From the NCBI GenBank assembly GCA_050693875.1, contig JBOGWP010000159.1, positions 6,003-70,002 of the forward strand: a DNA stretch of 64,000 nt, given 5' to 3'. Both the position numbers and the translations under genes were made by a program. Under the pieces are notes generated by a model, which searched no databases, was not told where the DNA came from, and saw nothing but the letters and a program-made list of their open reading frames with translations. Of the stretch, positions 15,287 through 64,000 are shown piece after piece; the stretch's first letter is position 1; each line of letters begins with the position of its first letter. This stretch comes from Actinomycetota bacterium (GTDB taxonomy: Bacteria; Actinomycetota; CADDZG01; JAHWKV01; JBOGWP01).

Positions 15287-15288
15287 CC

Positions 15289-23604: not shown

Positions 23605-23608
23605 CAGG

Positions 23609-27223: not shown

Positions 27224-27348
27224 TATCCTCCGTCGTTCTCTCGGCCAAACTTCTCAAAATGCCTCATCCGTCCACTCTTGACATCAGTACCCCCCGCCCA
27301 TAGCGTGTCCCCGGCGGGGGGTCGGTACCAAACGAGAAGGAGGCCACA

Positions 27349-32667: not shown

Positions 32668-32770
32668 CGGGAAGGGACACTACCAACCGGGAAAGCGGCG
32701 ATAGCGAACACGGGCCGGCTCCTCCACTATTCTCGCGACCGAATTCGGTCGGCACATACGGGAGGATTCG

Positions 32771-34981: not shown

Positions 34982-35057
34982 GGCGGCACGATTATCGAGC
35001 GTGGTCGGCGCGGGCGGCGGCAGGATGCCGGAGGCCGGGGCGGTGGGGCGGTGCCGG

Positions 35058-36791: not shown

Positions 36792-36874
36792 GACGTGAAA
36801 GGAAACCACGCGGCGGCGGGTCGCCGCAGGTTTTCCGGCGGATCTGCACGGCCCGTCTGCTAGCGTTTCCCGCC

Positions 36875-42078: not shown

Positions 42079-42288
42079 CAGGATCCTTTCGGCGAGGGCT
42101 TACCAGGGGAGAATCGGATGGCGGACAGGGTACTTTAGCGGGCCGGTTTGAGTCATTAGTCAGGAAAGCGTACCCAAGGTCCTCGTCTGGGATAACATCC
42201 CCGCACCGCACTTGAAGGCTCAGGTGCCGTTCCTCATCGCTCGCCAGGGGCCGGAGCGTGCGCCGAGCCGGGGCAGGGCGCAGGGAGG

Positions 42289-48449: not shown

Positions 48450-50350
48450 CGGAGGCCGGGCCCGCGGCACGGCCGGTCGAGATCCCGAGGATCGACCGGC
48501 CGGACCTGTCGATCCTCATGCTGACGTTCGGCGGATGGGAGTGGGCGCGGCGCAGCCTCGAGGCGGTCGCCGAGCACACGCCGGCTCGCTACGAGGTGGT
48601 GATCGTCGACAATGCGTCGCCCCCCGACACCGTGGCGGCGCTGCGGCGCGATTTGGTCGGTGCGCGCATCGTCTTCAACGATCGCAACGTCGGCTTCGGG
48701 CCGGGGATGAATCTCGCCGCCAGGAACGCCACCGGCCGCACGCTGTGCCTGCTGAACAGCGACTGCCTGGTGGAGCCGGGCTGGCTCGACCCGCTGCTCG
48801 AGGTGCTGGACGCCGATCCACTGGCCGGCGCCGCAGTTCCCCGGCTGCTGAACCTGGACGGTTCGCTACAGGAGGCGGGAGCTGCCGTCTCCTCGGACGG
48901 CTCGACGGTGGCGATTGGGGATGGAGACGATCCCGACGACGATGCCTACGCCTTCCGCCGGTACGTCGAGTACGGCTCAGCCGCATGCCTCGTGATCCGG
49001 CGAGAGCTGTTCCTCGAACTGGGCGGGTTCGACCCCGCCTTCGGGCTCGGCTACTGCGAGGACGTGGACCTCTGCCTTCGCCTCCGCCAACGCGGGCTGC
49101 GGGTGGTCTACGAGCCGGGGTCGCGGGTGGTCCATGCCCGGTGGGGCTCCGCGCCGCGGGAGGAGGCGATCCGGCGGGTCCGCAGGAACACCGAGATCCT
49201 TCGCAGTCGCTGGCGCTCCTCACTGCGGGAGCGGCCCTCGCTCGACGATCCGCTCCGCCGGCCTCCGCGCCTGATGGCTGCCCGTGACGCCGGAACCGTG
49301 CAGCGGATCCTCGTCGCGCATCCCCGACTTCCGCTGGATCGCTGGGGTTCGGCGGATCGGGATCTCGCGGAGGCCCTCCCTGAGATCGCGCGGCTGTGGC
49401 CGGAGAACCGGCTGACCGTGACACTCGACAAGACCGCCCCCGCGATCGCGGAGGAGGAGTCGTGGAGGGCGCTCGGCGTCGAGGTGGCCCGGCCCCGCGA
49501 CTTCGAGGAGGACTGGCTCGCCCTGCGCCTCGGGCACTACGCCGCCTGCATCGTCGCCGATGTGCGGGTGCTCGACGAGCGGCGACGCCTGCTCGCCGAG
49601 ACGCATCCGGGGGCGGCCCGGGTCTGGTGGGCAGGGCGGCCGCAATCGGGCGCGGAAGAGCACACCGATGGGGAGCGCCGCGCGGCGGGCTGGGCCGAGC
49701 TGGTGGTCTGCGCGTCGGATGAGGAACGGGACCGGTGGCGGGCGGTGGCACCCGGGCTTCGGGTCGTGGTCGTCCCGCGAGGGCTGGTGGTGGCCGATCC
49801 GGCCCCCGGATTCGGCGACCGCATCGGCGTGTGCCTCCTGCTTCCCGACGAGCCGCTCTGCACCGACGGGCTGTACGAGGGAGTCGTCAGTGTTCTCGCC
49901 CAGATGCCGGACCTGCCGGTGCAAGCGATAGCACCGGGTTCTGTGGCGCAGGCACGGGTTCCCGTGCCCGTGGTCGCCAACGTCGCCAACCCCCGGCCGT
50001 TCCTGCTGCGCGCGCGGGTCGGCGTGGCGTTTGCTCCCACCCTCGAGACCATCCTGGAGGTCGTCGGGGCGGGGACCCCCTTTCTCGTCGATCACGCCCC
50101 GACTGAGAACGAGTCCGGGCCGGCGGGTGGCGAGCGGGACAACGAGGCGGTGGCGGAGTACGCGCGGGTGCTGCACGCGGATCCTGGGACGTGGGACGTC
50201 CTCCGGGCGGCCCAGCGGGACGCCTGGCAGGAGGTGGCGCCCCAGGACGCCCGGCGGGAGGGCCTGGTCGAGGTGATGGCCGAGCTGGGGGTGCCTCCCC
50301 CCGATCGGCGGAGCCTCCGCGACCCCGCGGGGGCCAAGCTCTCCCGATGA
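48428..50350 (+). CDS. glycosyltransferase family 2 (rhamnosyltransferase-like) with an extra C-terminal domain
   Basis: SILMLTFGGWEW...VVIVDNAS...GFGPGMN...EDVDLCLRLRQRG are GT-A motifs. Confidence 0.7.
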   Translation: MAEKAPVAEAGPAARPVEIPRIDRPDLSILMLTFGGWEWARRSLEAVAEHTPARYEVVIVDNASPPDTVAALRRDLVGARIVFNDRNVGFGPGMNLAARNATGRTLCLLNSDCLVEPGWLDPLLEVLDADPLAGAAVPRLLNLDGSLQEAGAAVSSDGSTVAIGDGDDPDDDAYAFRRYVEYGSAACLVIRRELFLELGGFDPAFGLGYCEDVDLCLRLRQRGLRVVYEPGSRVVHARWGSAPREEAIRRVRRNTEILRSRWRSSLRERPSLDDPLRRPPRLMAARDAGTVQRILVAHPRLPLDRWGSADRDLAEALPEIARLWPENRLTVTLDKTAPAIAEEESWRALGVEVARPRDFEEDWLALRLGHYAACIVADVRVLDERRRLLAETHPGAARVWWAGRPQSGAEEHTDGERRAAGWAELVVCASDEERDRWRAVAPGLRVVVVPRGLVVADPAPGFGDRIGVCLLLPDEPLCTDGLYEGVVSVLAQMPDLPVQAIAPGSVAQARVPVPVVANVANPRPFLLRARVGVAFAPTLETILEVVGAGTPFLVDHAPTENESGPAGGERDNEAVAEYARVLHADPGTWDVLRAAQRDAWQEVAPQDARREGLVEVMAELGVPPPDRRSLRDPAGAKLSR

Positions 50351-50565: not shown

Positions 50566-51165
50566 GTGCGCGCGGCGGTGTTCCTGGATCGCGACGGGGT
50601 CCTGAACGCGGTGCGCATCGAGGGCGGGATCGCGGGGCCGCCCCGAGACCTAGACGAGCTCCAGATTCCTGAAGACGCTCATGCCTGCCTGGAGCGATTG
50701 AAGAAGGCCGGATACGTGCTCCTGGTCGTGAGCAATCAGCCCGACGTGGCGCGCGGAGACGTCGATCCCGCCGCGGTGTCGCGCATCAACGCCCGGCTGC
50801 GGGAGCGGCTCCCCATCGACGCCGTCTATGTCTGCGTCCATGACAACGCCGACGGGTGCGCGTGCAGGAAGCCCCGACCCGGGATGATTCACTCCGCCGC
50901 CCGCGACTGGCAGGTCGACCTCGGACGCAGCTGGCTCATTGGCGATCGCTGGACCGACATCGCCGCCGCGGATGCGGCCGGCGTCGACGGGATCCTCATC
51001 GAGTCCGCCCACAGCTGGCGGCCGACGAGCATTGGGGGGCCGCCCCCGGGACTTCGGCCGCGCTTCACCGGATCGTCTCTGCGCGACTGCATCGACTTCA
51101 TCTTCGAGGCGCCCGACTGCGGCTCGCCTCGGGCGCCGGCCCTCGGCGGTTCGCCGCGTCCATGA
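50566..51165 (+). CDS. gmhB: D-glycero-D-manno-heptose 1,7-bisphosphate phosphatase (HAD-IIIA)
   Basis: VFLDRDGVLN (the DxDGT/V motif), VVSNQP, and a Cys cluster CVHDNADGCACRKP typical of GmhB. GTG start. Confidence 0.7.
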   Translation: MRAAVFLDRDGVLNAVRIEGGIAGPPRDLDELQIPEDAHACLERLKKAGYVLLVVSNQPDVARGDVDPAAVSRINARLRERLPIDAVYVCVHDNADGCACRKPRPGMIHSAARDWQVDLGRSWLIGDRWTDIAAADAAGVDGILIESAHSWRPTSIGGPPPGLRPRFTGSSLRDCIDFIFEAPDCGSPRAPALGGSPRP

Positions 51166-51253
51166 CAAGGCTCGCCAAAGGCGGCAACGTTTTCTCCGTC
51201 GTCTCGCGTCCGATAGGCTCTCGCCGGGGGTTGCTTGGTGAGGAGGAATTGGG

Positions 51254-51925
51254 ATGAAGATCTTCGTCGACAGTGCCAACCTTGCCGATATCGAGTCGGC
51301 ACTCGAGCGCGGCTTTCCCTCCGGCATCACCACCAATCCCTCCATCCTGGCGAAGGAGGAGCGCCGCGACTATCGGGAGCACATTCGCGACATCATCCGC
51401 CTCGTCCAGAAGTTCGGCCGGGCCCTTCCCCTCTCGGTGGAGGTGTTCACCACCGACCCCTCCGAGATGATCCGCCAGGCGGACGAGTTCGTTGCCGAGT
51501 TCGGGGATTATCCCGAGCTGACGGTCAAGGTGCCGATCGGATGGGAGGAGCTGCGCGTGATCAGCGCCCTGACCGACCGGGGCGTCGCCGTGAACGCAAC
51601 CTGCGGGATGTCGTTCAACCAGGCTGTCATGGCGCTCAACGCCGGCGCGCGCTACATGAGCCTTTTCTGGGGGCGCATCCGCGACACCGGGTACGACGCC
51701 GGCTCGGTCGTGTCGCAGGTCCGGCGTGCGATGGAGCGGAGCGGGTCGTCGGCGGAGATCATCGTGGGATCGATTCGCCACATCATGGACGTCAACGAGG
51801 CGATCGAAGCGGGCGCGCACATCGTGACGGTGCCACCGATCTTCTTCGAGAGGATGTGCAGCCATCCCAAGACCGACGAGGTGGTGCACCAGTTCGTGAC
51901 CGAGTTCGCGGCTTGGATGTCCTGA
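51254..51925 (+). CDS. transaldolase/fructose-6-phosphate aldolase family (TalC/Fsa type)
   Basis: MKIFVDSANLADIE...GITTNPS...TVKVP (Schiff-base Lys context). Confidence 0.8.
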   Translation: MKIFVDSANLADIESALERGFPSGITTNPSILAKEERRDYREHIRDIIRLVQKFGRALPLSVEVFTTDPSEMIRQADEFVAEFGDYPELTVKVPIGWEELRVISALTDRGVAVNATCGMSFNQAVMALNAGARYMSLFWGRIRDTGYDAGSVVSQVRRAMERSGSSAEIIVGSIRHIMDVNEAIEAGAHIVTVPPIFFERMCSHPKTDEVVHQFVTEFAAWMS

Positions 51926-51990
51926 AGGGGACGGCCGCAGTTCCTGAACCAGGAGCGAGCGGGGCGGGCCTCGGGAGAGGTGAGCCCGCG

Positions 51991-53274
51991 AGACGCGTCG
52001 CGGTTTGGGGAGCATGGCACCTCGGGGCGGTTGTCGGTGCGGGGCTGGCGAGCCTGGGCCACCAGGTGACGCTCACCGACCTGGATGACGAGGTCGTGAC
52101 GAAGCTTCGATCCGGAAGGCCGGCCGTGCACGAGCCGGGCCTCGAGGATCTCCTGCGAGAGCAGCGATCCGCCGGGCGACTGGAGGTGGCGGGCTTCGCC
52201 GACCCGTCGCTCGGTGGCGCCGAGTACACCGTGATCGCGCTGGACGTGGCCATCGACGATGAGGACCGAGCGGTGCTCGACGGGGTACACGATCTCGCCG
52301 ACGCGATCACCCATGTGGTCACCGGAGAGACCTTGCTCGTCGTCATGAGCCAGGTTCCGGTTGGGACGAGCGATTGGCTCGCCGAGCGGGTGGCCGCCGG
52401 CAGCGGGGCGAGCGTCTTCGTTGCCCATGTCCCCGAGAACCTGCGGCTGGGAAGCGCGCTCGCCACGTTCTTCCGCCCAGACCGCATCGTCGTCGGAGCC
52501 GACGACGACCGGACCCTGCGACGCGTCTCGGAGCTGTTCGCCGGGCTGCACTGCCCAGTGGTGAGCATGAGCGTGCGCAGCGCAGAGATGGCGAAGCACG
52601 CCCTCAATGCTTACCTTGCGACCTGTATCAGCTTCATCGGCGAGGTGTCGGAGCTCTGTGAACAGGTGGGGGCAGATGCGATCGATGTGGCGGCAGCGAT
52701 GCGCCTCGACCGACGCGTCAGCCCACATGCTCCGCTTGCCCCCGGCCTGGGATACGCCGGAGGGACGCTCGGGCGCGACGTCCAGTCGCTGCGCCGCCTG
52801 GGGAGTGACAACGGGGTTGCGACGGAGCTCATGGACGCGGTCATGTCGGTGAACCGTCGCAGGATCGTCACGCTGGCCGAGAAGGTGGCGAGCGCCGCCG
52901 CCGATGGGAGCAAAGCTGTGGCCCTCCTGGGCCTGACCTACAAGCCGGGAACCGATACCCTTCGAAGGAGCCAGAGCCTCGAGCTCGCCCGCCTGCTCGT
53001 CGACAACGGCATGTCCGTGCGTGGCCACGATCCGATGATCGGCTCCCAACCGTCGTCGAAGCTCGGCTTTCCCGTCTTTGGCGAACCCTATGAGGCTGCA
53101 GCAGGGGCGGAGGTCGCGGTATTGATGACCGAGTGGCCCGAGTACCGGCAGCTCGATCTCCACCGTCTTGCATCCCTGATGGCCCGACCCGTTCTCATCG
53201 ATCCGGGCGGGTTCCTCGACGAAGCGGCGGCCCGGGCCGCCGGCTTTCGTCGGCGTGTCCTGGGCAGGGCGTAA
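51991..53274 (+). CDS. UDP-glucose/GDP-mannose dehydrogenase-family protein (start unresolved)
   Basis: RVAVWGAWHLGAVVGAGLASLGHQV aligns with the N-terminus of the Ugd family, and the C-terminal domain is conserved. There is no canonical in-frame start before RRVAV, and an ATG lies in the +1 frame, so the start uses a non-canonical codon or has an indel. Confidence 0.65.
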   Translation, partial: RRVAVWGAWHLGAVVGAGLASLGHQVTLTDLDDEVVTKLRSGRPAVHEPGLEDLLREQRSAGRLEVAGFADPSLGGAEYTVIALDVAIDDEDRAVLDGVHDLADAITHVVTGETLLVVMSQVPVGTSDWLAERVAAGSGASVFVAHVPENLRLGSALATFFRPDRIVVGADDDRTLRRVSELFAGLHCPVVSMSVRSAEMAKHALNAYLATCISFIGEVSELCEQVGADAIDVAAAMRLDRRVSPHAPLAPGLGYAGGTLGRDVQSLRRLGSDNGVATELMDAVMSVNRRRIVTLAEKVASAAADGSKAVALLGLTYKPGTDTLRRSQSLELARLLVDNGMSVRGHDPMIGSQPSSKLGFPVFGEPYEAAAGAEVAVLMTEWPEYRQLDLHRLASLMARPVLIDPGGFLDEAAARAAGFRRRVLGRA

Positions 53275-53290
53275 GCCCGGCGGTGGACTG

Positions 53291-54151
53291 ATGCGGCTTC
53301 GAGGGCGCACCTGCGTGGTGACCGGGGGAGGGAGGGGCATCGGCCGGGCCATCGCGGAGGCTTTGGCGGGCGAGGGGGCCAACCTCGCCCTGTGCGCGAG
53401 ATCCGCGGATGAGTTGGAGGCGACGGAGCGCCTGCTGCGCAGCCGGCACGGCGTCGGGACCCTGAGCCGGACGGTCGACGTCTCCGATGAAGCAGCTGTT
53501 CGTCGTTTTGCGGACGAGGTCCTCGCGCAATTCTCGCGGGTCGACCTGCTCGTGAACAATGCCGGGACATACGGGCCGGTCGGCCCTCTGACCGAGGTCG
53601 ACATCGCGGGGTGGGTCGGGTCGGTATCGGTGAACCTCTTCGGTGTCGTCCATGCGATCCGGGCGTTCGCGCCGGCGATGATCCGGCGGGGGGAAGGGCG
53701 GATCATCAACGTCGCCGGTGGAGGTGTGGGGGGACCGAACCCGCCGATCAATGTGAGCAGCTACACCTCCTCGAAAGCTGCCGTGGCCTGCCTGACCGAG
53801 ACGATTTCGCGCGAGCTGGCCGCGTACGGGATCGCGGTGAACGCCCTGGCTCCCGGAGCCGTCGGCACTCGATTGATCGATTCGGTCATCGAGGCGGGCC
53901 CGGAGCTGGCCGGGACCGAGCTTTACGAGCGCACCGTCGAGCAGCGCGCCTGCGGCGAACCGATCGAGCGGGTCGGGGAGGCGGCCGTCTTGCTGGCGCT
54001 GGCCCCGACGCCGCGTCTCACCGGAAAGCTCCTCAGCGTGAAGTGGGACGATCTCGAGCGTGTCGTGCAGGAGGGCGAGAGTCTCAACCGGACCTCGATG
54101 TACGCCCTGCGACGGATCGATGGCGTCCTCTTCGCGGAACAGCCGCACTGA
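53291..54151 (+). CDS. short-chain dehydrogenase/reductase (SDR)
   Basis: TCVVTGGGRGIGRAIA, NNAG, and YTSSKAA (the YxxxK motif). Confidence 0.8.
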   Translation: MRLRGRTCVVTGGGRGIGRAIAEALAGEGANLALCARSADELEATERLLRSRHGVGTLSRTVDVSDEAAVRRFADEVLAQFSRVDLLVNNAGTYGPVGPLTEVDIAGWVGSVSVNLFGVVHAIRAFAPAMIRRGEGRIINVAGGGVGGPNPPINVSSYTSSKAAVACLTETISRELAAYGIAVNALAPGAVGTRLIDSVIEAGPELAGTELYERTVEQRACGEPIERVGEAAVLLALAPTPRLTGKLLSVKWDDLERVVQEGESLNRTSMYALRRIDGVLFAEQPH

Positions 54152-54157
54152 TCGACG

Positions 54158-55117
54158 GTGAGGATCGTCGTCACCGGTGTCGCCGGATTCATCGGCTCGA
54201 ACCTCGCCGATGCCCTCCTCGCCCGGGGAGACGAGGTGGTTGGGCTCGACAACTTCTCCACCGGAACGATGCGCTTCCTCGAGCGGGCGCGAGGATCGGC
54301 GAAGTTCGAGCTGGTCGAGGTGGACCTCTACGAACGGCCTCAGGTGCTCGCCGACGTGTGCCGCGGGTCCGACGCGGTCTTCCACCTCGCCGCCAATGCC
54401 GACGTTCGCTTTGGGTGGGAGGCCACGGACCGGGACATCAAGCAGAACGTCCTCGTCACCCGCCATGTGCTGGAGGCCACCCGTGCCTCGGGCGTCCCCA
54501 GACTGCTGTTCTCGTCAACCGGGTCCGTCTATGGAGAAGCGCCGGTGATTCCCACGCCCGAGGACTGCCCCTTCCCGGCGCAGACCTCTCTGTACGGAGC
54601 GTCGAAGCTGGCCGCGGAGGGCCTGATTTCGGCGTATGCCGAGGCCGGCGTGGTGTCCGCGACCGTGTTCCGGTTCGTGTCCATCCTGGGTCCGCGGTAC
54701 ACGCACGGCCACGTGGTCGATTTCGTGGCTCAGCTCCGACGCGATCCGACGACCCTGCGCGTCCTCGGGGACGGACGGCAGCGGAAGAGCTATCTCGACG
54801 TGACCGACTGCGTCGCCGCGATGCTCTTGCTCCTGGAGGCGGATCACCGCTACGAGGTGTACAACCTCGGCGTCGATGCGTACTGCACGGTCGACGAATC
54901 CGCAGGGTGGATCGCCGAGCGCCTGGGAGTTACCCCCGTCCTCCGGCACACGGGGGGCGACCGCGGTTGGGTGGGCGACAACCCCTTCATCTATCTCTCG
55001 ACGAATAAGATGCGCAGCGCCGGCTGGTCGCCCGCCTACACCATTCGTGACGCCGTGGAGCGGACCGTCGACTATCTCCTGCAGAACGAGTGGGTTCTCG
55101 AAAGGGCAGTGGTCTGA
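54158..55117 (+). CDS. NAD-dependent sugar epimerase/dehydratase (UDP-glucose 4-epimerase family)
   Basis: IVVTGVAGFIGSNLADAL and YGASKLAAE. GTG start. Confidence 0.8.
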   Translation: MRIVVTGVAGFIGSNLADALLARGDEVVGLDNFSTGTMRFLERARGSAKFELVEVDLYERPQVLADVCRGSDAVFHLAANADVRFGWEATDRDIKQNVLVTRHVLEATRASGVPRLLFSSTGSVYGEAPVIPTPEDCPFPAQTSLYGASKLAAEGLISAYAEAGVVSATVFRFVSILGPRYTHGHVVDFVAQLRRDPTTLRVLGDGRQRKSYLDVTDCVAAMLLLLEADHRYEVYNLGVDAYCTVDESAGWIAERLGVTPVLRHTGGDRGWVGDNPFIYLSTNKMRSAGWSPAYTIRDAVERTVDYLLQNEWVLERAVV

Positions 55118-56101
55118 GTGGCCATCGGGGTGGCGGTGATCGGGTGCGGGCTCATCGGGAACAAGCGCATTGCCGCGCTTCCGCAGGGGACGCGGCTCGT
55201 GAGCGTAACGGACCTCGACCGCTCCCGCGCCGAGAAAGCCGCCGCCCTGGTGCCCTACGAGGTGCAGGTCGCCGATTCCGCGGAAGAGGCGGTTGCGGCC
55301 GACGGCGCCGACCTCGCCGTCGTGGCGGTGGTCCACGCCGACCTCGCCGCCGCCACGCTTGTGGCGCTCGAGGCGGGGTGCCACGTGCTCGTGGAGAAGC
55401 CCGGGGGCCGTGCGCTCGAGGATCTGGAGGTCATCCAGGAAGGAGCGGCCCGCTCGCGGCGCCGGGTGCGGGTGGGCTTCAATCATCGCTTCCATCCCGG
55501 AGTGCTCAAGGCTCGGGAGCTGCTTCGTGGAGACGATGCGGGGGAGTTGATCTACGTTCGAGCGAGATACGGGCACGGCGGCAGGCCAGGCTATGAGTCG
55601 GAGTGGAGGAGCAACAGGGAGGTCTCGGGAGGAGGGGAGCTGCTCGACCAGGGAATGCACCTGATCGATCTCACCCGCTTTCTGATCGGCGACGTCGACC
55701 TGGCCTTCGTCGAGCTCCGAACCGACTTCTGGAAGACCTTGGTGGAGGACAACGCCTACCTTGCCCTCCGTCCCCGCGCCGGAGGTTTCGCCTGGCTGCA
55801 CACCTCGTGGACCGAATGGAAGAACATCTTCTCGCTCGAGATCGCTCACGCGCGGAGAAAGATCGAGATGTTCGGGCTGGGGGGGAGCTACGGGACCGAA
55901 CGCCTGACCTGCTACCAGATGCTTCCCGAGATGGGACCTCCCGCGACCACCGCCTGGGAGTGGCCGCAGCCAGACCGGTCATGGGCCCGCGAGCTGGAGG
56001 ATTTCATCTCGACGCTTCGGGACGGGACCGAGGGGATCGGGGCGGAGCCAGCGGACGCGGCCGCGGCGTTCGCCATCGTCGAGGAGGCCTACGAGACATG
56101 A
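55118..56101 (+). CDS. Gfo/Idh/MocA-family NAD(P)-dependent oxidoreductase
   Basis: VAVIGCGLIGNKR and the EKP motif (HVLVEKP). Confidence 0.8.
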   Translation: MAIGVAVIGCGLIGNKRIAALPQGTRLVSVTDLDRSRAEKAAALVPYEVQVADSAEEAVAADGADLAVVAVVHADLAAATLVALEAGCHVLVEKPGGRALEDLEVIQEGAARSRRRVRVGFNHRFHPGVLKARELLRGDDAGELIYVRARYGHGGRPGYESEWRSNREVSGGGELLDQGMHLIDLTRFLIGDVDLAFVELRTDFWKTLVEDNAYLALRPRAGGFAWLHTSWTEWKNIFSLEIAHARRKIEMFGLGGSYGTERLTCYQMLPEMGPPATTAWEWPQPDRSWARELEDFISTLRDGTEGIGAEPADAAAAFAIVEEAYET

Positions 56102-57078
56102 TCATCGCGAGGACGCCGCTCCGCATCTCGCTCGGCGGTGGGGGGACGGACCTTCCCTCCTACTACCGGTCGGCAGGTGACGGATTTCTCGTTGCCGCCG
56201 CGATCACCAAGTACATCTACATCGCGATCAACCAGAACTTCGACGACGACATCCTGCTCAAGTACTCGGCGATCGAGCGCGTGAAGGAGGTGGACGACGT
56301 CCGGCACCCGCTGTTTCGAGAGGCCCTCCGGCTGACGCGCACGCGAAACAGGGTGGAGATCTCGTCGATGGCCGACATTCCGGCAAATACCGGGTTGGGC
56401 TCGTCGGGCAGCTTCACCGTCGGCCTGCTCAAGGCTCTCCATGCCTACCAGCACTCGGTCGTCTCGAATGCGCAGCTCGCGGAGCAGGCGTGTCACATAG
56501 AGATCGACAGGCTCGGAGAGCCGGTCGGCAAGCAGGACCAGTTCATCGCGGCGATGGGAGGCGTCACCGCATTCGAGTTCCGAGAGGACGACTCGGTCGA
56601 GATCTCGCCGGTGCCGATGGCGCAGTCCACGCGGGACCGGCTCGAGGAGAACCTTCACCTCTTCTACACCGGGATGACGCGCTCGGCCGGATACATCCTC
56701 GCCGATCAGGACCAGAAGTCGAAGGCAAGCGACGCCGGAACCAAGGACAACCTCGACCAGGTGAAGCGCATCGGGCGTGAGAGCTTCGACGCGCTCCGGG
56801 ACGGCAACCTCAAGTGGTTCTCTGCCCTGATGTCCGAACAGTGGGAGCTCAAGAGGGCGCGCTCGCCGAGTGCGACCAACCGCCAGATCGACGAGTGGAT
56901 CCGAACGGGTCTGGAAGCAGGAGCCGAGGGCGGGAAGCTGGTCGGTGCAGGTGGGGGCGGATTCCTCCTCTTCTACTCGGAGCACAAGGCGGACCTTCGT
57001 GAAGCGATGTCCGCCCTCGGGCTCCCGGAGGTGCGGTTCCGCTTCGACTACGAGGGAACGAAGCTGGTGGTGAGCTGA
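56098..57078 (+). CDS. hddA: GHMP kinase, D-glycero-alpha-D-manno-heptose 7-phosphate kinase-like
   Basis: ATG overlaps the upstream stop (ATGA). MIIARTPLRISLGGGGTDLPSYY has the HddA N-terminus, and the GHMP motif PANTGLGSSGS is present. Confidence 0.7.
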   Translation: MIIARTPLRISLGGGGTDLPSYYRSAGDGFLVAAAITKYIYIAINQNFDDDILLKYSAIERVKEVDDVRHPLFREALRLTRTRNRVEISSMADIPANTGLGSSGSFTVGLLKALHAYQHSVVSNAQLAEQACHIEIDRLGEPVGKQDQFIAAMGGVTAFEFREDDSVEISPVPMAQSTRDRLEENLHLFYTGMTRSAGYILADQDQKSKASDAGTKDNLDQVKRIGRESFDALRDGNLKWFSALMSEQWELKRARSPSATNRQIDEWIRTGLEAGAEGGKLVGAGGGGFLLFYSEHKADLREAMSALGLPEVRFRFDYEGTKLVVS

Positions 57079-57080
57079 GC

Positions 57081-57785
57081 TTGTACCCCGTTGCCGTGCT
57101 CGCCGGGGGGGTGGGAAGCAGAATCGCGCCGATCAACGACAGCGACCTCCCCAAGGTGCTCCTTCCCGTTGCCGGTCGGCCCTTCATCGACTACAAGCTG
57201 ACCACCCTGGCTGCGGCGGGGGTCGACCGCGTCGTACTGCTGGTGGGCCACCGGTCGGAGCTCGTCGAGCGCCACGTCGGAACGGGAAGTCGCTACTCCC
57301 TTTCCGTGACCTACGCGTTCGACGGCCCGCAGCTTCTCGGCACGGGCGGCGCGCTGCGACGGGCCCTGACCCAGCTCGGCGAGATCTTCTGGGTGACCTA
57401 TGGAGATACCTTGCTGACGGTGCCGATGAAGGAGGTCGAGGAGAGCTACCGGGCGAGCGGATTGAGAGCGCTCATGACCGTCCTCCACAACCGCGATCGC
57501 TGGGACCGGAGCAACGTCGCCGTCGCCGACGGGATGGTCGTTGAGTACCGGAAGGGGAGCGCGCTCGGCACGTTCGAACACATCGACTACGGGATGAGCA
57601 TCTTGCCGATCGCCGCCTTCGAGGCCTTTCCGCCCGATCGGGCCTTCGATCTGGAGGAGGTCCTCTCGGGTCTCGTCGCGGCGCGAGAGCTCGCTGCATT
57701 CGAGGTCCAGGAGCGCTTCTACGAGATCGGGACGCCGGAGAGCTACGCGGAGACCGTTGCGTTCTTCTCGACCACCATGCGCTAG
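57081..57785 (+). CDS. hddC: sugar-1-phosphate nucleotidyltransferase (D-glycero-alpha-D-manno-heptose 1-phosphate guanylyltransferase-like)
   Basis: AVLAGGVGSRIAP...LLPVAGRPFIDY is the nucleotidyltransferase fold. Directly follows hddA. TTG start. Confidence 0.65.
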   Translation: MYPVAVLAGGVGSRIAPINDSDLPKVLLPVAGRPFIDYKLTTLAAAGVDRVVLLVGHRSELVERHVGTGSRYSLSVTYAFDGPQLLGTGGALRRALTQLGEIFWVTYGDTLLTVPMKEVEESYRASGLRALMTVLHNRDRWDRSNVAVADGMVVEYRKGSALGTFEHIDYGMSILPIAAFEAFPPDRAFDLEEVLSGLVAARELAAFEVQERFYEIGTPESYAETVAFFSTTMR

Positions 57786-57805
57786 TCACCGGGATTCCTA
57801 TTGAG

Positions 57806-60694
57806 GTGGTGAGAGAGGACGAGGCGTCGCCGCCGCCAATCGAAGCGCCTGGCCGGACAGCACGGCGTGCCCGAGGAGGCCGCCTCGGGCTGGTGTTGGC
57901 TCTCGCCGTGGTCACGTTGCCGTTCTTCCAAGTGGCGTTTGAGGGGAAGACCTTCAGCGCCGACGGCTTCGTCCCCGGCGTCAACGGCTTCGATCCCGTT
58001 CCCGGCACCCCCAAGGTCCCGCTGGAACAGCGCTGGATCGACCCGGGGGCATCCGCTTGGCAATTCGAGCCGTGGGCCGAAGTCGTTGGGAGGATGCTCC
58101 ACCAGGGTGATGTGCCGCTCTGGAACCCGTGGCAGGCGCTGGGGACGCCGCTCGCCGCCGCAATGCAGCCTGGGGTCTTTGACCCTCTCCTCGCACCGGT
58201 TCGGATCTGGCCTTCGCAGCTCGCTTGGGACCTCTCGCTCATCGCCAGCATCCTGCTCGGCGCAGCCGCGGCGTACGGGTACGCCCGCCTCCTCGGCCTT
58301 TCGTGGCCGGCATGTCTGACCGCGGCCGCCGGCTTCCTCCTCTCCGGCTTCTTCTTGACCTACACGAACAACCACTTCTTCCGGTCGTACCTCTATCTTC
58401 CAGTTCTGCTGTCCGCGGTCGAGCTGCTTCTTCGGTCTCGTCGTGCGATGCCCGTTGCCCTGCTCGCGCTGGCCGTCGCGGGAAACCTTGTCGTGGGGAT
58501 GCCGGAGGCATCGTTCTTCGTCCTCTCGGCGACCGGCGCCTACGCGTTGTTTCGGATTCTCGTCGGACCCCTCGAGAGCAGCCGATGGAACGTCGTTCTG
58601 CGGATCACCGGAGGGGTCATCATGGGGGTCGCCCTGGCCTCCCCGCTCCTGTTCGCCTTCCTCGAATTCGTGACCCGCTCCTTCAACATCCATGCGGCAG
58701 AGCGCCCCGGCGTCAGGATCGACTCGCCATGGACGCCCCTCGTTTGGGCTCTTCCGCACGTCCAGGATGTCGTGAGGAACTGGAACGGAGTCGCTGTCTT
58801 CGCGCTGGCAGTGGTGGCAGTCTTCTCGATCGGGCGGAACCGGCGTCGTGTCGCATGGTTCTTCCTCGCCCTCGTCGGACTACTGACGCTGAAGATCGTC
58901 GGAAGCCCACTCGTGCAGTGGATCGGCCGCCTGCCGCTCGCGGAACTCGTGATCTTCCCGGTCTTCGCCCTACCCGTCGTGTCCTTCGGGTTGGTCATGC
59001 TGGCGGCGATCGGTGTGCAGGCAGTGATCGATGGCGCGACGAACCGACGACCCTGGCTCCACGCTTCGGCAGTTGCACTGCTGCTCGCCTCCGTGCTGGC
59101 GCTCGCCGCAGTGGCCGCTCCGGCCGGCAAGCGTCGCGGTGAACCCGCGGTCCCGATCCGGGCGGCACTACCCGCTGTTGCCGGTTCTTCGCTGGTGATT
59201 GCTGGGCTGCTGGTCCGGCGGGGGCGCGCCGGGGGGCTTCTGGTCGCCTCGGGCGTGATCGTGGAGCTCCTCCTCCTGGCGCCCAGGGGAGGATACCTCG
59301 ACCGCTACGACCCCTACCATCCTCCCGCGTGGCTCGAGCGGCTTCGACAGGATGCCGCCATCCACCCCAATGGGCGGATGTATGGGTACGACGGGAAGCT
59401 GTACCCGAACACGGCCGGGGTGTTCGGCTTGTACGACATCCGTTCGCTCGACGCCCTCTACGTCGACCGCTACATGGCCTACATGCGGGCGTTCGTCGAG
59501 CCCGAGGTTCGCGACCGATTCACCGGGGTCCCCGCGGACCAATGGACGCCGCCGCATGTTCGTGACAACCCGATGTTCGACCTCCTCGGTGTCCGCTACC
59601 TCGTCACGAGCGGGACAAGGCCGTGGAGTCGTGTGATCGAGGAGATCTTCGAACGGCGCGAATCCAACCCCGCGTTCCGCCCCGCCGTCTTCGACATCCG
59701 TGGGGACCGCAGGCACGTGCTGTTCCTGCACAGCACCCAGGAGGTGGCCTATCCGGTGGAGACGATGCAGCTTGCTCGAGTCCGGTTCGGTTATGCGGTC
59801 GATCCCTCGGCGTGGAGCGACCCGACCGCGGACGGCGTCGCCCTGTCCTTGAGTGCGGTAGGCGGAGACGGAAAGAGGCGCCAGGTCTGGGAGGGTGAGT
59901 ACGTGCCGCGCAGCGACCCCGTCCTCCCGGAATGGCGAGAGGCGGAGATCGACCTCTCGAGGCTTTCCGGGCCGATCACCTCGCTCGTTTTCAGGACCGA
60001 CGCGAGAGGCAACGGCGCCCACGACTGGGCCGGCTGGGCCGAGATCCAGCTGCTCGACGCGGGGGGGAAGCCGATCTCTGATGACGGGCTGCGAGAGGTC
60101 GCGCGGTTTCACGACGCTGCCGTCTTCGGCTGGGATCGGGCCTTGCCGAGGGCGTTCCTCGTCGGGCGCGTGCAGCCTGCTCGAGACCTCGATGATGCCC
60201 TCGAGCTGTTCCGCGCCCGGGGAAGGCGCTTCCCCGACGGTTGGGTGCAGGTGACGGAGTTCGATCCCCGGCGCGAGGCGGTGGTCGAGCGTTCACGGGA
60301 GCTGCCCGCGGCGCTCGTGACTGGACAGGGCGGAGGGGATCCGCCGGGAACCGCCCGCATCCTCGCTTATTCGAGCAACCGGGTCGTGATCGAGACCGAC
60401 GCTGCCAGGCCGGGACTCTTGGTGCTCACGGACACCTACTACCCGGGCTGGGTGGCATCGGTGAAGGGCCGCGAGGCGCCGGTCGTTCCTACCAACGTGC
60501 TGTTCCGAGGCGTTCCGGTGCCCGCCGGCCGCTCGCTGGTCGTGTTGAAGTACCAGCCTGGACCCTTCCGAGTCGGGACGGTTCTGGCCACCATCTCTCT
60601 GCTGGCACTTCTCGCGTTCGTGCTCGGAGACATGGTGGTCCATCGGCGGCAGACGTCCCTGGACCGCGTGCCATACGCGGGTAGGCGCGGCTGA
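57806..60694 (+). CDS. large polytopic membrane protein, YfhO-like GT-C glycosyltransferase candidate
   Basis: About 960 aa. At least 12 TM helices in the N-terminal half, a large extracytoplasmic C-terminal domain, and a terminal TM helix (VGTVLATISLLALLAFVLG). This is the YfhO family architecture. Confidence 0.45.
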   Translation: MVREDEASPPPIEAPGRTARRARGGRLGLVLALAVVTLPFFQVAFEGKTFSADGFVPGVNGFDPVPGTPKVPLEQRWIDPGASAWQFEPWAEVVGRMLHQGDVPLWNPWQALGTPLAAAMQPGVFDPLLAPVRIWPSQLAWDLSLIASILLGAAAAYGYARLLGLSWPACLTAAAGFLLSGFFLTYTNNHFFRSYLYLPVLLSAVELLLRSRRAMPVALLALAVAGNLVVGMPEASFFVLSATGAYALFRILVGPLESSRWNVVLRITGGVIMGVALASPLLFAFLEFVTRSFNIHAAERPGVRIDSPWTPLVWALPHVQDVVRNWNGVAVFALAVVAVFSIGRNRRRVAWFFLALVGLLTLKIVGSPLVQWIGRLPLAELVIFPVFALPVVSFGLVMLAAIGVQAVIDGATNRRPWLHASAVALLLASVLALAAVAAPAGKRRGEPAVPIRAALPAVAGSSLVIAGLLVRRGRAGGLLVASGVIVELLLLAPRGGYLDRYDPYHPPAWLERLRQDAAIHPNGRMYGYDGKLYPNTAGVFGLYDIRSLDALYVDRYMAYMRAFVEPEVRDRFTGVPADQWTPPHVRDNPMFDLLGVRYLVTSGTRPWSRVIEEIFERRESNPAFRPAVFDIRGDRRHVLFLHSTQEVAYPVETMQLARVRFGYAVDPSAWSDPTADGVALSLSAVGGDGKRRQVWEGEYVPRSDPVLPEWREAEIDLSRLSGPITSLVFRTDARGNGAHDWAGWAEIQLLDAGGKPISDDGLREVARFHDAAVFGWDRALPRAFLVGRVQPARDLDDALELFRARGRRFPDGWVQVTEFDPRREAVVERSRELPAALVTGQGGGDPPGTARILAYSSNRVVIETDAARPGLLVLTDTYYPGWVASVKGREAPVVPTNVLFRGVPVPAGRSLVVLKYQPGPFRVGTVLATISLLALLAFVLGDMVVHRRQTSLDRVPYAGRRG

Positions 60695-60764
60695 CATACG
60701 TTGATGGGGCCCAGTGACGAAGAGGTTCGGGGTGCCGAGGCTATTCGTGAGTCGCGCCGCCAGC

Positions 60765-61601
60765 TCAGCGTGCTGATCGCTTGCGTTCGACCCCGCTGGT
60801 CGCTCGCTCTCGAGGTCGGCGCGGCCGGCGCAAAGGCTGATCCGGAGGCCGCAGGGGGCTGACCCGAAAGCGAACCAGGGCGACGACCCAGGTGAGCGGA
60901 TCCCGAACGAACCGCACCTTCTTCCCCCGGTCGTATCCGCGGGAGACGTATGTGATCGGGACCTCAATGGGCTGAAAGCCGAGGCGGACGAGCTTCCCTA
61001 CGAGCTCCCAGTCGAAGTCGAATCGATCGGCGACAAACTCGACGTCGGCGATGCACTTCGTCCGAAACACCTTGTACATGGTGAAGGGGTCGCGGAGGCG
61101 AGTTCCGTAGACCACGTTGAACAGCCAGGTGAAGACCCAGTGCGCCGCGTTCATGACGCGGCTCACCAGCCTCACGTCCCCGAACTCCCGCATGGCCTTG
61201 CCCGGCGCGTGGCGGCAGCCGAGCACGAAATCCCCCTGACCGGAGAGGATCGGCTCGAGCACGACCGGATAATCTTCGATGCGGTACTCGAGGTCTGCGT
61301 CCTGGATCAGCACGATGTCGCCCGAGGCGTGCTGGAGACCCTCACGGACGGCGTTTCCCTTCCCCCGAGGCCGATCCTGCTCGATGAGCTTCACCCGGCC
61401 ATCTGAGGCGTAACGCCTGCAGATTTCTCGCGTGCCGTCGGCCGATCCGCTCTCGACGACGATCAGCTCGATGTCGACGCCGGTGATCGACTGGGCCAGG
61501 ACCTGCTCGATCACGGTCCCGACGGTTGCTGCCTCGTTATAGGCGGCCATGACCACCGACAGGGTCGTGCGGCCCGGGCCTCCCCCCAGATCGGCGCTCA
61601 C
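60765..61601 (-). CDS. glycosyltransferase family 2 (DPM1/polyprenol-phosphate glycosyltransferase-like)
   Basis: LSVVMAAYNEAATV...ELIVVESGSADGT...IQDADLEY. GTG start overlaps the gmhA stop (GTGA). The 550-aa ORF in the track is an N-terminal shadow across gmhA. Confidence 0.75.
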   Translation of the reverse strand: MSADLGGGPGRTTLSVVMAAYNEAATVGTVIEQVLAQSITGVDIELIVVESGSADGTREICRRYASDGRVKLIEQDRPRGKGNAVREGLQHASGDIVLIQDADLEYRIEDYPVVLEPILSGQGDFVLGCRHAPGKAMREFGDVRLVSRVMNAAHWVFTWLFNVVYGTRLRDPFTMYKVFRTKCIADVEFVADRFDFDWELVGKLVRLGFQPIEVPITYVSRGYDRGKKVRFVRDPLTWVVALVRFRVSPLRPPDQPLRRPRRPRERATSGVERKRSAR

Positions 61602-62233
61602 CGGGTAGGGGCCTGGGCGACTCTGGCTGCGTCCAGCGACTCCCACCGCGGCGCCGACCGAAGGAGGTCGGGATGAGTCACCAGTAGGTGCCAGAAGACC
61701 GCCTGCATCCCCTCGGTGTGGGCGGTGACGTTCGCAGGGTTTACCGTCGGGACGAGGATGCAGGCATCGGCGGCGGCGCGAAGGTATCCTCCATCCCTCC
61801 CGACGATCCCGGTGACCGAGGCGCCTGCCTCCTTCGCGGTCCGGATTGCTTTGACGAGGTTCATGCTCACCCCGCGCTCCGCGTCGCCACCGCCGACCGA
61901 GAACACGAAGAGACAGTCGCCGGACCGGATGCGGGACCCGATGAGCCAATTCGAGTAGGCGACCTCCCATCCCTCGTCGTTCACCCGGGCGGTGAGCTCG
62001 GCGACATTGTCGTTCGGGCAGTACGCCTCGAAGCCGGCCAGCTTCCGGAAGTCGCAGGTCGCGTGGGAGGCGTGCGCCGCTCCTCCGCCCGACCCACAGA
62101 GAAAGAGCCGCCCGCCGCGATCGCGTGTGCTCCGCAGGACGCGCACGACCTCCTCCACGTCGGACGGCGGAGCAATGCCGAGTATTGAGGCGGACTCGGC
62201 CAGGAATGCCTCGGTGAAAGAGGGCCGCTGCAC
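61598..62233 (-). CDS. gmhA: D-sedoheptulose 7-phosphate isomerase (SIS domain)
   Basis: SIS fold with RLFLCGSGGGAAHASHATCD and CLFVFSVGGGDAERGVSMNLVKA. Confidence 0.75.
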   Translation of the reverse strand: MQRPSFTEAFLAESASILGIAPPSDVEEVVRVLRSTRDRGGRLFLCGSGGGAAHASHATCDFRKLAGFEAYCPNDNVAELTARVNDEGWEVAYSNWLIGSRIRSGDCLFVFSVGGGDAERGVSMNLVKAIRTAKEAGASVTGIVGRDGGYLRAAADACILVPTVNPANVTAHTEGMQAVFWHLLVTHPDLLRSAPRWESLDAARVAQAPTR

Positions 62234-62447
62234 GCGTTGGCATTCTATGTGACGAAGCGGCCGCCGGTCGGGACCCCTCTCTCGTTCCCATCATGCCGGC
62301 CGGGGGCGTCCCTGATCCGGATATGCTATGCAGCCATCCTGAGCAGCCTCCGAGAGGTGCCGAGGAGATCCCCACTCGTGGATCCACATCAGCTGCCCCA
62401 GCACGACTCACTGCCATCGGAGAGCCAACTCCCTCACGATGGGGAGC

Positions 62448-64000
62448 GAATGGTCCCCGACCTCGACCGGGAGGGCCTGATCTACGTCGAGCACGTCGTC
62501 CGGTACCGTTTCGCCGCCCAGCTCGTCGAGGGCAAACGCGTTCTCGACGTGGCGTGCGGCGCGGGGTATGGGTGCGCCACGCTTTCGAACGCGGGTGCCG
62601 CGGAGGTCGTCGGTGTCGACCGTGCGGCGGCTGCGGTGGAATACGCGCACCGCCGCTACGGGGGGATGGGGCGTCGCTTCCTTGCTTGCAACGCCACCCA
62701 GATGCCGTTCGCAGCGGGCTCGTTCGACGTCGTGATCTCGTTCGAGACCCTGGAGCACCTGGGCGAGCAGGCGCGCTTCGTGGACGAGGTGCGACGGGTT
62801 CTGGGAGACGACGGCCTCTTCGTGTTGTCGACTCCGAACCGGCTCCGGTATCCGAAGGGCAACCCGTTTCATGTCCACGAGCTGGACGACGTCGAGTTCG
62901 AGGCCTTTCTGCGGGGACGGTTTCGGCACGTCGAGCTCCTGGCCCAGGACAATTGGACCGCGGGGGCGATCCTCCGCCCCTCGACCAAGGTGGACGATGG
63001 CGACGGCCCCAGGCCGCGGGTCACGGTCGACGGGGGGGTCAGCGAGGAGCCCCTGGGCCCCCTCTACCTGCTCGCGATTTGCTCGGACGGGCCTCTTCCC
63101 GAGCCCCTCGAGCGCGTGATGCTCGCGCGGATCCCGCCCCAAGAGCTGTTGATGTACCTCGCTCGAGACGACGAGCTACGCGCGGTCCGGAGCCAGCGCG
63201 ACGAGTGGGAGTCTCAGGCGCGCGCCCTGGAGCGCGACCGTGACCGATGGGCGACGGAAGCCGCAGCTCTCGGGGAGGACCGGGACGGGTGGGCCGCTGA
63301 GGCGGCCGCCGTCCGGGAGAACCGGGACGGGCTGGCGGGAGACGTGGCCTGGCTCAAGGCAGAGCTTCTGGGCGCGAACATCCGGTTGGAATCCGCCGAG
63401 CGGCTCGCCCAGCGCCGGCAGGTTGCACTCGCCGCGCTGGAGTCCGAAGCCGTCGGCCTGCACGGCGACATCAGGCTTCTCGGGGAGGAGCTTGCAGCGC
63501 TGCGAGGGGCGCGTACGTTCGCGCTGGCCGCGCGCATCGGACGCGCGGCGGGCAGCCTGCTCCCCCCCGGGTCTTCCCAGCGCCGCATGTTGGCGGCCGC
63601 CCGGGCAACGGTGCGCGAACTGGCCGAGACGGGCCGACGCCTCCGCAACGGGTGGCGGACGCCATCCGAGCAGGCGCCGCCCCCCATCGATCAGCAGCGA
63701 GGGTACTCGGAGTGGCGCCAGCTGTACGATGCCACTCCCGACGAGCTGCGGGCTCAACGGGAGACGGCGCTTCGCGCTTCGAATGTCGTCGCCTTCATCT
63801 GCCTCATCGGCGGCGCAGAGGCCACGCCCGAAGGCCAGGCCACCCTGGCGAGCCTTCGTGCGCAGACCTGGCCTTTCTGGTCGTTCGTGTTCGCCTGGGA
63901 GTTCCCGGGTGGACCCGGCGCGGTCGACCCTGAGAAGGTCCGCCAATCGGTCGAGGATTCGGGGCAGGACTTTGTCCTCTTCCTTCGCGCCGGCGACCGG
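62448..64000 (+). CDS. class I SAM-dependent methyltransferase + long coiled-coil protein, 3'-partial
   Basis: Found by direct translation; it is missing from the ORF track because no stop occurs before the window end. Motif I VLDVACGAGYGCATL and VVISFETLEHL, then about 200 aa of heptad-like Arg/Glu/Ala-rich sequence (ERDRDRWATEAAALGEDRDGWAAEAAAVRENRDGLAGDVAWLKAELLGANIRLESAERLAQ). Confidence 0.65.

Follow-up and report, generated by a model that had tools for sequence, protein, structure and literature searches.

Which sugar is made by a locus whose core enzymes resemble those of nucleotide-activated heptose biosynthesis, when the curated families of that pathway fit its proteins so poorly? 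The question is raised by a surface-glycan locus at 50566-62233 of a 64,000-nucleotide stretch of DNA from an uncultured Actinomycetota genome (the whole stretch is hereafter called the window; its G+C content is about 70%). The original prediction read four genes of this locus, gmhB, hddA, hddC and gmhA, as a complete guanosine diphosphate (GDP)-D-glycero-alpha-D-manno-heptose pathway. All of the open reading frames (ORFs) that it listed exist with the protein families ascribed to them, including the HAD-IIIA, GHMP-kinase, NTP_transferase and SIS_2 domains of the four core proteins and the families of the named flanking genes. Its view of the locus as a sugar-nucleotide route with an isomerase, an anomeric kinase, a phosphatase and a nucleotidyltransferase, tailored further within a surface-glycan locus, also stands; the heptose identity of the sugar does not. 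We consider that the locus is probably a counterpart of the octose pathway of the lincosamide antibiotics joined to lipid-carrier glycosylation, and that it would place a nucleoside diphosphate (NDP)-activated octose, possibly an 8-deoxy-octose, onto a surface polymer.

One-to-one correspondence with the lincosamide octose enzymes

In the lincomycin and celesticetin pathways, a C8 sugar is built by LmbR (transaldolase), LmbN (C8 isomerase), LmbP (kinase), LmbK (phosphatase) and LmbO (guanylyltransferase), and is tailored by LmbL (dehydrogenase), LmbM (epimerase) and LmbZ (oxidoreductase) (PMC4351081). LmbR joins ribose 5-phosphate to a C3 unit taken from fructose 6-phosphate or sedoheptulose 7-phosphate to give octulose 8-phosphate (PMC5854111; PMC7014725), which LmbN, LmbP, LmbK and LmbO turn into GDP-octose, and GDP-octose is in turn made into GDP-lincosamide by LmbM, LmbL, LmbZ and LmbS (PMC12945683). 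For comparison, LmbJ was rebuilt from a published supplementary sequence and used as bait, which yielded three lincosamide clusters, viz., the lmb cluster in a Streptomyces assembly (L127), a lincosamide-type cluster in Allokutzneria (L128) and the ccb cluster of S. caelestis (L129). L127 is identical to a published S. lincolnensis lmbN/lmbM primer arm in 38 of 39 bases, and Pfam assigns its LmbZ to Gfo/Idh/MocA, its LmbL to UDPG_MGDP_dh, its LmbR, of 220 amino acids, to TAL_FSA and its LmbN to SIS_2.

All eight of these enzyme families are present in the window, with similar sizes, and the eight proteins align over nearly their full lengths with their Lmb counterparts at 32-45% identity (BLASTP, window proteins against Lmb proteins). 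The phosphatase predicted as GmhB is an LmbK-like HAD-IIIA sugar-bisphosphate phosphatase (50566-51165, + strand; TIGR01656, 124 bits; 45% identical to LmbK), and it is followed by a short LmbR-like transaldolase of 223 amino acids (51254-51925, +; Pfam TAL_FSA, 140 bits; 37% identical to LmbR), by an LmbL-like NDP-sugar dehydrogenase-family protein (51913-53274, +; UDPG_MGDP_dh; 37.5% identical to LmbL), which starts at TTG 51913, the sole listed start codon upstream of its Rossmann motif, and by a classical, FabG-like short-chain dehydrogenase/reductase (SDR; 53255-54151, +; Pfam adh_short, 170 bits). Next come an extended-SDR NDP-sugar epimerase of the LmbM subfamily (54158-55117, +; Pfam Epimerase, 172 bits; 37% identical to LmbM), an LmbZ-like oxidoreductase that Pfam places in Gfo/Idh/MocA (55118-56101, +; 36% identical to LmbZ), the predicted HddA, which is a GHMP anomeric sugar-phosphate kinase of the HddA/LmbP group (56098-57078, +; 32% identical to LmbP), and the predicted HddC, an LmbO-like sugar-1-phosphate nucleotidyltransferase (57081-57785, +; 33% identical to LmbO). 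The predicted GmhA, an LmbN-like SIS-domain ketose-phosphate isomerase, lies on the opposite strand (61598-62233, -; 33% identical to LmbN). The transaldolase, dehydrogenase, SDR, epimerase and MocA genes form a single, tightly packed operon on the + strand.

When the Lmb proteins were searched in reverse against the 64-kb window using tblastn, the best match was the cassette gene for each of the eight, and not one of the rml genes or the second dehydrogenase gene of the window; the eight cassette proteins are the bidirectional best hits of LmbK, LmbR, LmbL, LmbM, LmbZ, LmbP, LmbO and LmbN. The Lmb proteins likewise score higher with window-type proteins than with canonical enzymes in the case of LmbP (108-120 bits vs 71-83 bits for HddA), LmbK (105-131 bits vs 58-75 bits for GmhB) and LmbL (162-202 bits vs 116-159 bits for UDP-glucose 6-dehydrogenase, UGDH), though this preference is weaker for LmbR and LmbO, and LmbN gives a tie.

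The genes for the MocA protein, the kinase and the nucleotidyltransferase are neighbours both in lmb and in the window, but the gene order differs otherwise, the classical SDR has no lmb or ccb counterpart, and the isomerase and MocA protein of the window have no fused carrier-protein domain. The host, too, is different, being an uncultured Actinomycetota known from a metagenome-assembled genome, and metagenomes contain hundreds of relatives of the cassette. LmbS, the aminotransferase, and LmbQ have no tblastn match in the window (LmbT was not searched), and Pfam scans found no aminotransferase domain among the window ORFs scanned; as there is no LmbS-type aminotransferase, the product would not be lincosamine. 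With LmbS and the remaining lmb genes missing, the locus is not a strict lincosamide pathway. A full-text literature search found no report of an LmbR-type octose route outside the lincosamides, and within the limits of the library searched an octose route serving as a common envelope-glycosylation cassette is unreported.

Derived characters shared with LmbN, LmbL and LmbR

Zinc is bound in E. coli GmhA by His61, Glu65, Gln172 and His180 (PMC5387315). In the window isomerase, as in LmbN and CcbN, the corresponding residues are His, Asp, Glu and His. The replacement of Glu65 by Asp is seen in the window protein, in LmbN/CcbN and in 137 of the 150 best family representatives, and that of Gln172 by Glu is found in the window protein and LmbN/CcbN in two alignments, a third alignment placing the column differently. 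The window protein and LmbN/CcbN also have six additional residues in the loop that matches STSGxS of GmhA, reading FSV(G/H)GG....VSxNL vs ISTSGNSxN, and since the loop is short in E. coli DiaA too, the insertion is the derived state. A three-residue insertion before the C-terminal helix is again common to them. Overall similarity agrees with these local features, as the window isomerase scores 84 bits with LmbN (BLAST) vs 44 bits with the best GmhA of the PDB (phmmer), and a profile of its family scores 112-128 bits with LmbN/CcbN vs 60 bits with GmhA.

The dehydrogenase had been described as ugd-like. It does belong to the same three-domain fold family as UGDH (Ugd/TuaD), with a phmmer score of 222 bits to a solved UGDH, but its motifs have changed as they have in LmbL. 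WHLG, SQVP, PENLRLG and G-x-T-L-x-R-D are common to the window protein, its homologue in a related locus (L001, see below), LmbL and CcbL; the window protein reads WHLG, MSQVP, PENLRLG and GGTLGRD vs GYVG, KSTVP, PEFLREG and GGSCFPKD in UGDH, and the catalytic Cys of UGDH is replaced by Thr. Given the known mechanism of UGDH, this replacement makes a uronic acid an unlikely product of the window enzyme. The second dehydrogenase of the window (16794-18095) keeps the Cys (GGHC).

The transaldolase appears to share derived changes with LmbR less clearly than the isomerase and the dehydrogenase do with their counterparts. The motifs SL(F/L)WGRIxD, GS(I/V)R and VTVPP are common to the window protein and LmbR, whereas three solved short transaldolases have SPF(L/V)GR(L/M)DD, ASIR and T(M/V)P(F/L) instead. 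The strands bearing these motifs hold the phosphate-binding Arg, Ser and Arg of transaldolases. Of the best 120 homologues of the window protein, all have GS(I/V)R, 112 have TVPP and nearly all have the first motif, with its Trp changed to Tyr, Ser or Phe in about 18. The Asp, Glu, Lys and Phe of classical transaldolases are conserved at their positions in the window protein. FSA has Gln and Tyr where transaldolases have Glu and Phe, and an FSA-type aldolase was rejected for 51254-51925 on the presence of the transaldolase Glu and Phe; a sulfofructose transaldolase was likewise rejected, with a score of only 56 bits.

Recurrence of the cassette in other loci

The gene set recurs in six independent loci, viz., the window, L001/L002, L131, L132, L133 and a contig with a reduced cassette, and its arrangement is therefore not due to chance. 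The transaldolase is present in all six, which argues that it is an enzyme of the pathway and not a supplier of precursors. The reduced cassette consists only of transaldolase, isomerase, phosphatase, kinase and nucleotidyltransferase, i.e., the LmbR/N/P/K/O core, and the dehydrogenase, epimerase and MocA genes are absent from the approximately 20 kb listed of this contig; its isomerase, phosphatase and transaldolase genes are adjacent, with overlapping reading frames. In L001, L131, L132 and L133, the core is accompanied by a classical SDR, an epimerase, a MocA oxidoreductase, a small family 2 glycosyltransferase (GT2) and a YfhO gene. The LmbL-like dehydrogenase is found in the window, L001 and L131 and is missing from L132 and L133, and the cassettes of this family probably do not all lead to a single end product. 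In L001, L131 and L132, the cassette has methyltransferase genes on its flanks.

Fusions of the core enzymes are also seen, with LmbN-like isomerases joined, in various metagenomic proteins, to the phosphatase (in either order), to the nucleotidyltransferase or to the GHMP kinase; among ten long isomerase proteins, there are fusions to the phosphatase or the nucleotidyltransferase only, and none to a transaldolase. The isomerase family comprises 289 clusters at 50% identity (E<=1e-30), the best 120 relatives listed for the transaldolase are at least 65% identical to it and the best 120 listed for the kinase at least 61%, and the source organisms that are named are Actinomycetota, Acidimicrobiia or Acidimicrobiales. 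Copies of the cassette are common in metagenomes and mostly carry heptose annotations; the JGI label for metagenomic homologues of the kinase is heptose-7-phosphate kinase, and the NCBI label for several is galactokinase. The gene set, its conservation, its one-to-one homology to the Lmb/Ccb proteins and the derived motifs common to both are established.

Two further features of the related loci may be recorded. L131 lies on a 705-kb contig, and gene calling splits each of three of its tailoring genes, those for the dehydrogenase, the SDR and the MocA protein (5750-9813), into at least two pieces, which suggests that the assembly has frameshift errors or that the tailoring genes are decaying. 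L001 has two genes without a Pfam match (14044-15536; 262 and 251 amino acids) between those of the epimerase and the MocA protein, where the window has none.

Closest relatives, trees and evidence against an octose

The phosphatase is 42-45% identical to LmbK vs 30% to E. coli GmhB, with a BLAST score of 125 bits to LmbK vs a phmmer score of 78 bits to the best GmhB of the PDB. The MocA protein matches LmbZ over its full length at 36% identity (156 bits), vs 71 bits over the N-terminal half with the best solved structure, and the epimerase, which is 37-39% identical to LmbM/CcbM, is the best match of LmbM in the window. For the nucleotidyltransferase, the scores are 81-94 bits with LmbO, 80 bits with MurU and 57 bits with HddC, the latter two from the PDB, and the kinase is 32-33% identical to LmbP vs 27-31% to HddA. 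In neighbour-joining trees (Kimura distances, 200 bootstrap replicates and an outgroup each), which are crude and hold few canonical references, the window family groups with Lmb/Ccb to the exclusion of the canonical enzyme in 200 of 200 replicates for the isomerase, 200 of 200 for the dehydrogenase and 197 of 200 for the phosphatase; support is moderate for the nucleotidyltransferase, which groups with Lmb/Ccb in 160 of 200, 9 of 200 placing it with the canonical enzymes instead.

The crudeness of these trees is the first of several points that weigh against an octose. The transaldolase groups with LmbR in 126 of 200 replicates (63%), which is weak, and the kinase is split, with 59 of 200 replicates placing it with LmbP, 30 of 200 with HddA and 111 of 200 uniting LmbP with HddA; taking E. 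coli GalK as the root leaves the kinase tree uninformative. Family profiles tell the same story, that of the kinase giving a tie (174 bits for LmbP vs 172 for WcbL) and that of the transaldolase scoring slightly higher with housekeeping short transaldolases (166-173 bits) than with LmbR (146-158 bits), and neither protein is clearly nearer to its Lmb counterpart than to the canonical enzymes. The window transaldolase keeps the classical Glu and Phe, whereas LmbR has Gln and Leu there, and the epimerase is nearer to an archaeal GalE-1 structure (PDB 3ehe, 269 bits) than to LmbM. The identities to the Lmb proteins, at just 32-45%, are low enough for a substrate change to have been possible since the divergence, and the loss of the dehydrogenase from L132 and L133 indicates that dehydration of the LmbL/LmbZ type is not universal in the family. 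Lastly, no GtrA-like or other flippase was identified in the window.

Comparison with the heptose pathway

The alternative that survives best, though we judge it unlikely, is that the locus encodes a divergent GDP-D-glycero-alpha-D-manno-heptose pathway, in which the transaldolase would raise the supply of sedoheptulose 7-phosphate and the oxidoreductases would yield a deoxy or epimerised heptose. A corollary is that the lincosamide octose pathway would have arisen later, from a heptose cassette, through a changed acceptor of the transaldolase. The heptose pathway, which is known from the S-layer glycan of Aneurinibacillus, the capsules of Campylobacter and the capsule of Burkholderia (WcbL), has the same four-step logic and employs the same protein superfamilies, and the window kinase shares 27-31% identity with WcbL, a Bacteroides kinase and C. 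jejuni HddA. Its best solved relatives are heptose-7-phosphate kinases, which are as close as LmbP (WcbL, 134 bits). None of the classical catalytic residues is missing from the transaldolase, which in overall sequence resembles LmbR no more than it resembles the housekeeping transaldolases, and biosynthetic clusters often hold duplicated enzymes of primary metabolism for precursor supply. Heptose models are also the best or near-best NCBIfam matches of the four proteins in question, and the top matches for three of them.

All four proteins nevertheless fall far below the curated cut-offs of these models. The kinase scores 136 bits with the HddA equivalog (cut-off 600), the nucleotidyltransferase 75 bits with the HddC equivalog (cut-off 300) and a higher 92 bits with MurU (cut-off 250), the isomerase 56 and 54 bits with two GmhA equivalogs (cut-offs 320 and 209), and the phosphatase 113 bits with the beta-type and 61 bits with the alpha-type GmhB equivalog (cut-offs 178 and 250). 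Two zinc-ligand residues and the STSGxS phosphate loop of GmhA are altered in the isomerase as they are in LmbN, and the phosphatase and nucleotidyltransferase group with LmbK and LmbO and not with GmhB and HddC. Phylogenetic placement of the kinase and the nucleotidyltransferase had been proposed as a check of the heptose assignment, and its outcome is divided, as the nucleotidyltransferase joins LmbO and not HddC, whereas the kinase is split between LmbP and HddA. The original prediction had further seen in the transaldolase a possible source of sedoheptulose 7-phosphate, a role at odds with its constancy in all six loci and with the overlapping isomerase, phosphatase and transaldolase genes of the reduced cassette; we know of no characterised GDP-heptose locus with a dedicated transaldolase. 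The trio of LmbL-, LmbM- and LmbZ-type enzymes alongside the core and the Cys-less dehydrogenase with its LmbL motifs also speak for the octose pathway. The locus is not a member of the canonical GDP-heptose family, as tests of defining features of that family went against it.

Glycosyl transfer and the envelope setting

The lincosamide clusters and the window differ further in that the cassette of the window is tied to a putative polyprenyl-phosphate-type GT2 and a YfhO-like GT-C protein. The small GT2 (60765-61601, -; 278 amino acids) has no predicted transmembrane (TM) segment, and the start of its gene overlaps the stop codon of the isomerase gene (GTGA); a GT2 gene also adjoins that of the isomerase in L001 and L133. 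Its top NCBIfam matches are AglJ (97 bits, cut-off 325), dolichyl-phosphate hexose transferase (68 bits, cut-off 375), ArnC and PpgS, all below their cut-offs. The YfhO-like GT-C membrane glycosyltransferase (57806-60694, +; 962 amino acids) matches Pfam YfhO at 31.6 bits (cut-off 28.5) in its C-terminal part only, and a hydropathy scan shows about 13 N-terminal TM segments, a hydrophilic domain of about 430 amino acids and a C-terminal TM segment. YfhO genes are present in L001, L131, L132 and L133, and the homologues in L131 and L132 have unflagged YfhO matches in Pfam.

CsbB/GtrB with YfhO in the glycosylation of Bacillus and Listeria teichoic acids, ArnC with ArnT and the mycobacterial PpgS with Rv3779 are lipid-carrier glycosylation systems that combine a polyprenyl-phosphate GT2 with a GT-C protein. 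The window likewise pairs a small GT2 with a large multi-spanning protein that matches YfhO and has an extracytoplasmic domain, but its GT2 has no predicted TM segment and the sugar donated would be a C8 sugar. The neighbourhood in the window also includes rml genes, cell-wall hydrolases, a GT4 and membrane proteins of PMT-like and PIG-V-like type, and the setting is that of an envelope glycan, not of an antibiotic cluster. In the contig with the reduced cassette, a membrane protein of the LPG_synthase_TM family (genes at 846-1973) is encoded between the kinase and the nucleotidyltransferase, and this protein could be the missing flippase.

Proposed pathway and the remaining alternatives

By analogy with the Lmb enzymes, we propose a scheme in which the compounds converted and formed at each step, the choice of nucleotide, the part played by the SDR, the lipid carrier and the acceptor are all inferred. 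The transaldolase would transfer a C3 unit from fructose 6-phosphate or sedoheptulose 7-phosphate onto ribose 5-phosphate, as LmbR does, to give octulose 8-phosphate, which the isomerase would convert to octose 8-phosphate, as LmbN does. The GHMP kinase would phosphorylate C1 to give octose 1,8-bisphosphate (LmbP), the HAD phosphatase would remove the 8-phosphate to leave octose 1-phosphate (LmbK), and the nucleotidyltransferase would then form NDP-octose (LmbO; the nucleotide would be GDP by the same analogy). Dehydration at C6 and C8 of the LmbL/LmbZ type was reportedly described by Wang et al. in 2020, and the epimerase, Cys-less dehydrogenase and MocA protein of the window may, like LmbM, LmbL and LmbZ, carry out an epimerisation and such a 6,8-dehydration to a keto-8-deoxy intermediate. 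As there is no LmbS aminotransferase, we propose the classical SDR as a candidate ketoreductase, whose reduction of the keto group would replace the transamination by LmbS and yield an NDP-8-deoxy-octose, the hydroxy analogue of lincosamine. The small GT2 would load the sugar onto polyprenyl phosphate and, after flipping, the YfhO-type GT-C protein would transfer it to an extracytoplasmic polymer or protein of the cell envelope.

A less probable alternative than the heptose is another higher-carbon or unusual sugar nucleotide, made from a different aldose-phosphate acceptor or tailored in a manner unrelated to the lincosamine route. The deep divergence of the cassette from both reference pathways (27-45% identity) would allow for it, as would the variable tailoring, with its optional dehydrogenase, the additional genes of L001 and the additional methyltransferases, and the nucleotidyltransferase resembles MurU, GDP-mannose pyrophosphorylase and LmbO about equally. 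Even so, we hold this alternative to be improbable, since the complete match to eight Lmb enzymes, together with the active-site changes of the isomerase, is explained most simply by the same core chemistry. That the locus is a cryptic cluster for a lincosamide-like or aminoglycoside-like secondary metabolite is very improbable in spite of its nearest characterised relatives being enzymes of antibiotic biosynthesis, as neither an aminotransferase nor an LmbQ homologue is found in the window by tblastn with the proteins of the lmb sugar region, Pfam scans of the window ORFs show none of the PIG-L amidase, gamma-glutamyl transpeptidase and ribosomal RNA methyltransferase seen in L127-L129, GT2 and YfhO-type GT-C genes always stand beside the cassette in an envelope-type neighbourhood, and its hundreds of relatives are from environmental Actinomycetota. 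The sole AMP-binding enzyme of the window (1-1548) lies about 45 kb from the cassette.

Neighbouring genes

The operon is headed by a gene for a conserved protein of 492 amino acids (46971-48449, +), which had been taken as pyruvyl-transferase-like and as a sign of a pyruvylated polymer. Its Pfam match to PS_pyruv_trans (PF04230) reaches 24.0 bits, below the gathering threshold of 25.3, and it has no NCBIfam match, leaving the proposed pyruvylation to rest on a sub-threshold score. It is followed by a large GT2 of 640 amino acids without a predicted TM segment (48428-50350, +; Pfam Glycos_transf_2, 76 bits), the top NCBIfam match of which is MftF-like (101 bits vs a cut-off of 280). GT2 genes of like size are found in L001 and L133, where they adjoin Pfam-less proteins similar in size to the 492-residue protein, a correspondence of size and position.

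Of the deoxysugar genes that had been assigned to the neighbourhood, rmlB (6009-6965), rmlC (7079-7552) and rmlA (7857-8558) are borne out by tblastn with E. coli RfbB, RfbC and RfbA, and rmlD was not found in the window. For the gmd/rmd pair, support reaches the family level only: both are extended SDRs that Pfam places in GDP_Man_Dehyd, but the gmd equivalog gives 163 bits against a cut-off of 415. Beside the second NDP-sugar dehydrogenase (16794-18095, -) lie 18168-19508 (-) and 15289-16977 (-), its neighbours being a glycosyltransferase of the GT4 family and an FGGY sugar kinase, and this group may represent a separate uronic-acid branch of the envelope glycan. Three membrane proteins with weak PIG-V (Mannosyl_trans2) or PMT_2 matches (25988-27253, 31507-32679 and 33869-35464, all -) suggest several lipid-linked glycosyl transfers of the GT-C type in the neighbourhood.

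Two putative surface proteins, encoded at 20785-22872 (+) and 39868-42099 (-), one with DUF5979, DUF7601 and SpaA-like prealbumin-fold repeats and the other with FG-GAP repeats, could be acceptors or neighbours of the glycan machinery. A protein of 629 amino acids (27304-29193, +) has two stretches of the Cu/Zn superoxide dismutase domain (206 bits) and is unusually long for SodC. The glycan region also holds four class I S-adenosylmethionine (SAM) methyltransferases, at 62189-64000 (+), 42196-43215 (+, with an additional DUF4214), 36794-37840 (+) and 22897-23829 (-), and methylated sugars are likely in the glycan. The first of these (Methyltransf_11, 77 bits) is divergent from the isomerase gene, runs off the window and is a possible sugar O-methyltransferase.

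Implications for Actinomycetota envelopes and for the lincosamides

It is quite possible, although we would stop short of calling it probable, that the C8 pathway known only from the lincosamides is a widespread form of envelope glycosylation among uncultured Actinomycetota (Acidimicrobiia and their relatives), in which an octose or 8-deoxy-octose is transferred via polyprenyl phosphate and a YfhO GT-C protein, and that it represents the type of cassette of primary metabolism from which the amino-sugar pathway of lincomycin and celesticetin was recruited, the ketoreductase being swapped for an aminotransferase. If so, metagenomic proteins labelled as D-glycero-alpha-D-manno-heptose-7-phosphate kinase, galactokinase, transaldolase or UDP-glucose dehydrogenase would often belong to an octose pathway. 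The His-Asp-Glu-His site and longer phosphate loop of the isomerase and the Cys-less dehydrogenase could serve as annotation markers that separate the octose from the heptose pathway. The divergent homologues of LmbR, LmbN, LmbP, LmbK, LmbO, LmbL, LmbM and LmbZ would become available for the enzymatic synthesis of GDP-octose analogues. Most directly, a C8 sugar would be a constituent of the envelope glycans of a major uncultured group of Actinomycetota, and the amino sugar of the lincosamides would have a concrete evolutionary source.

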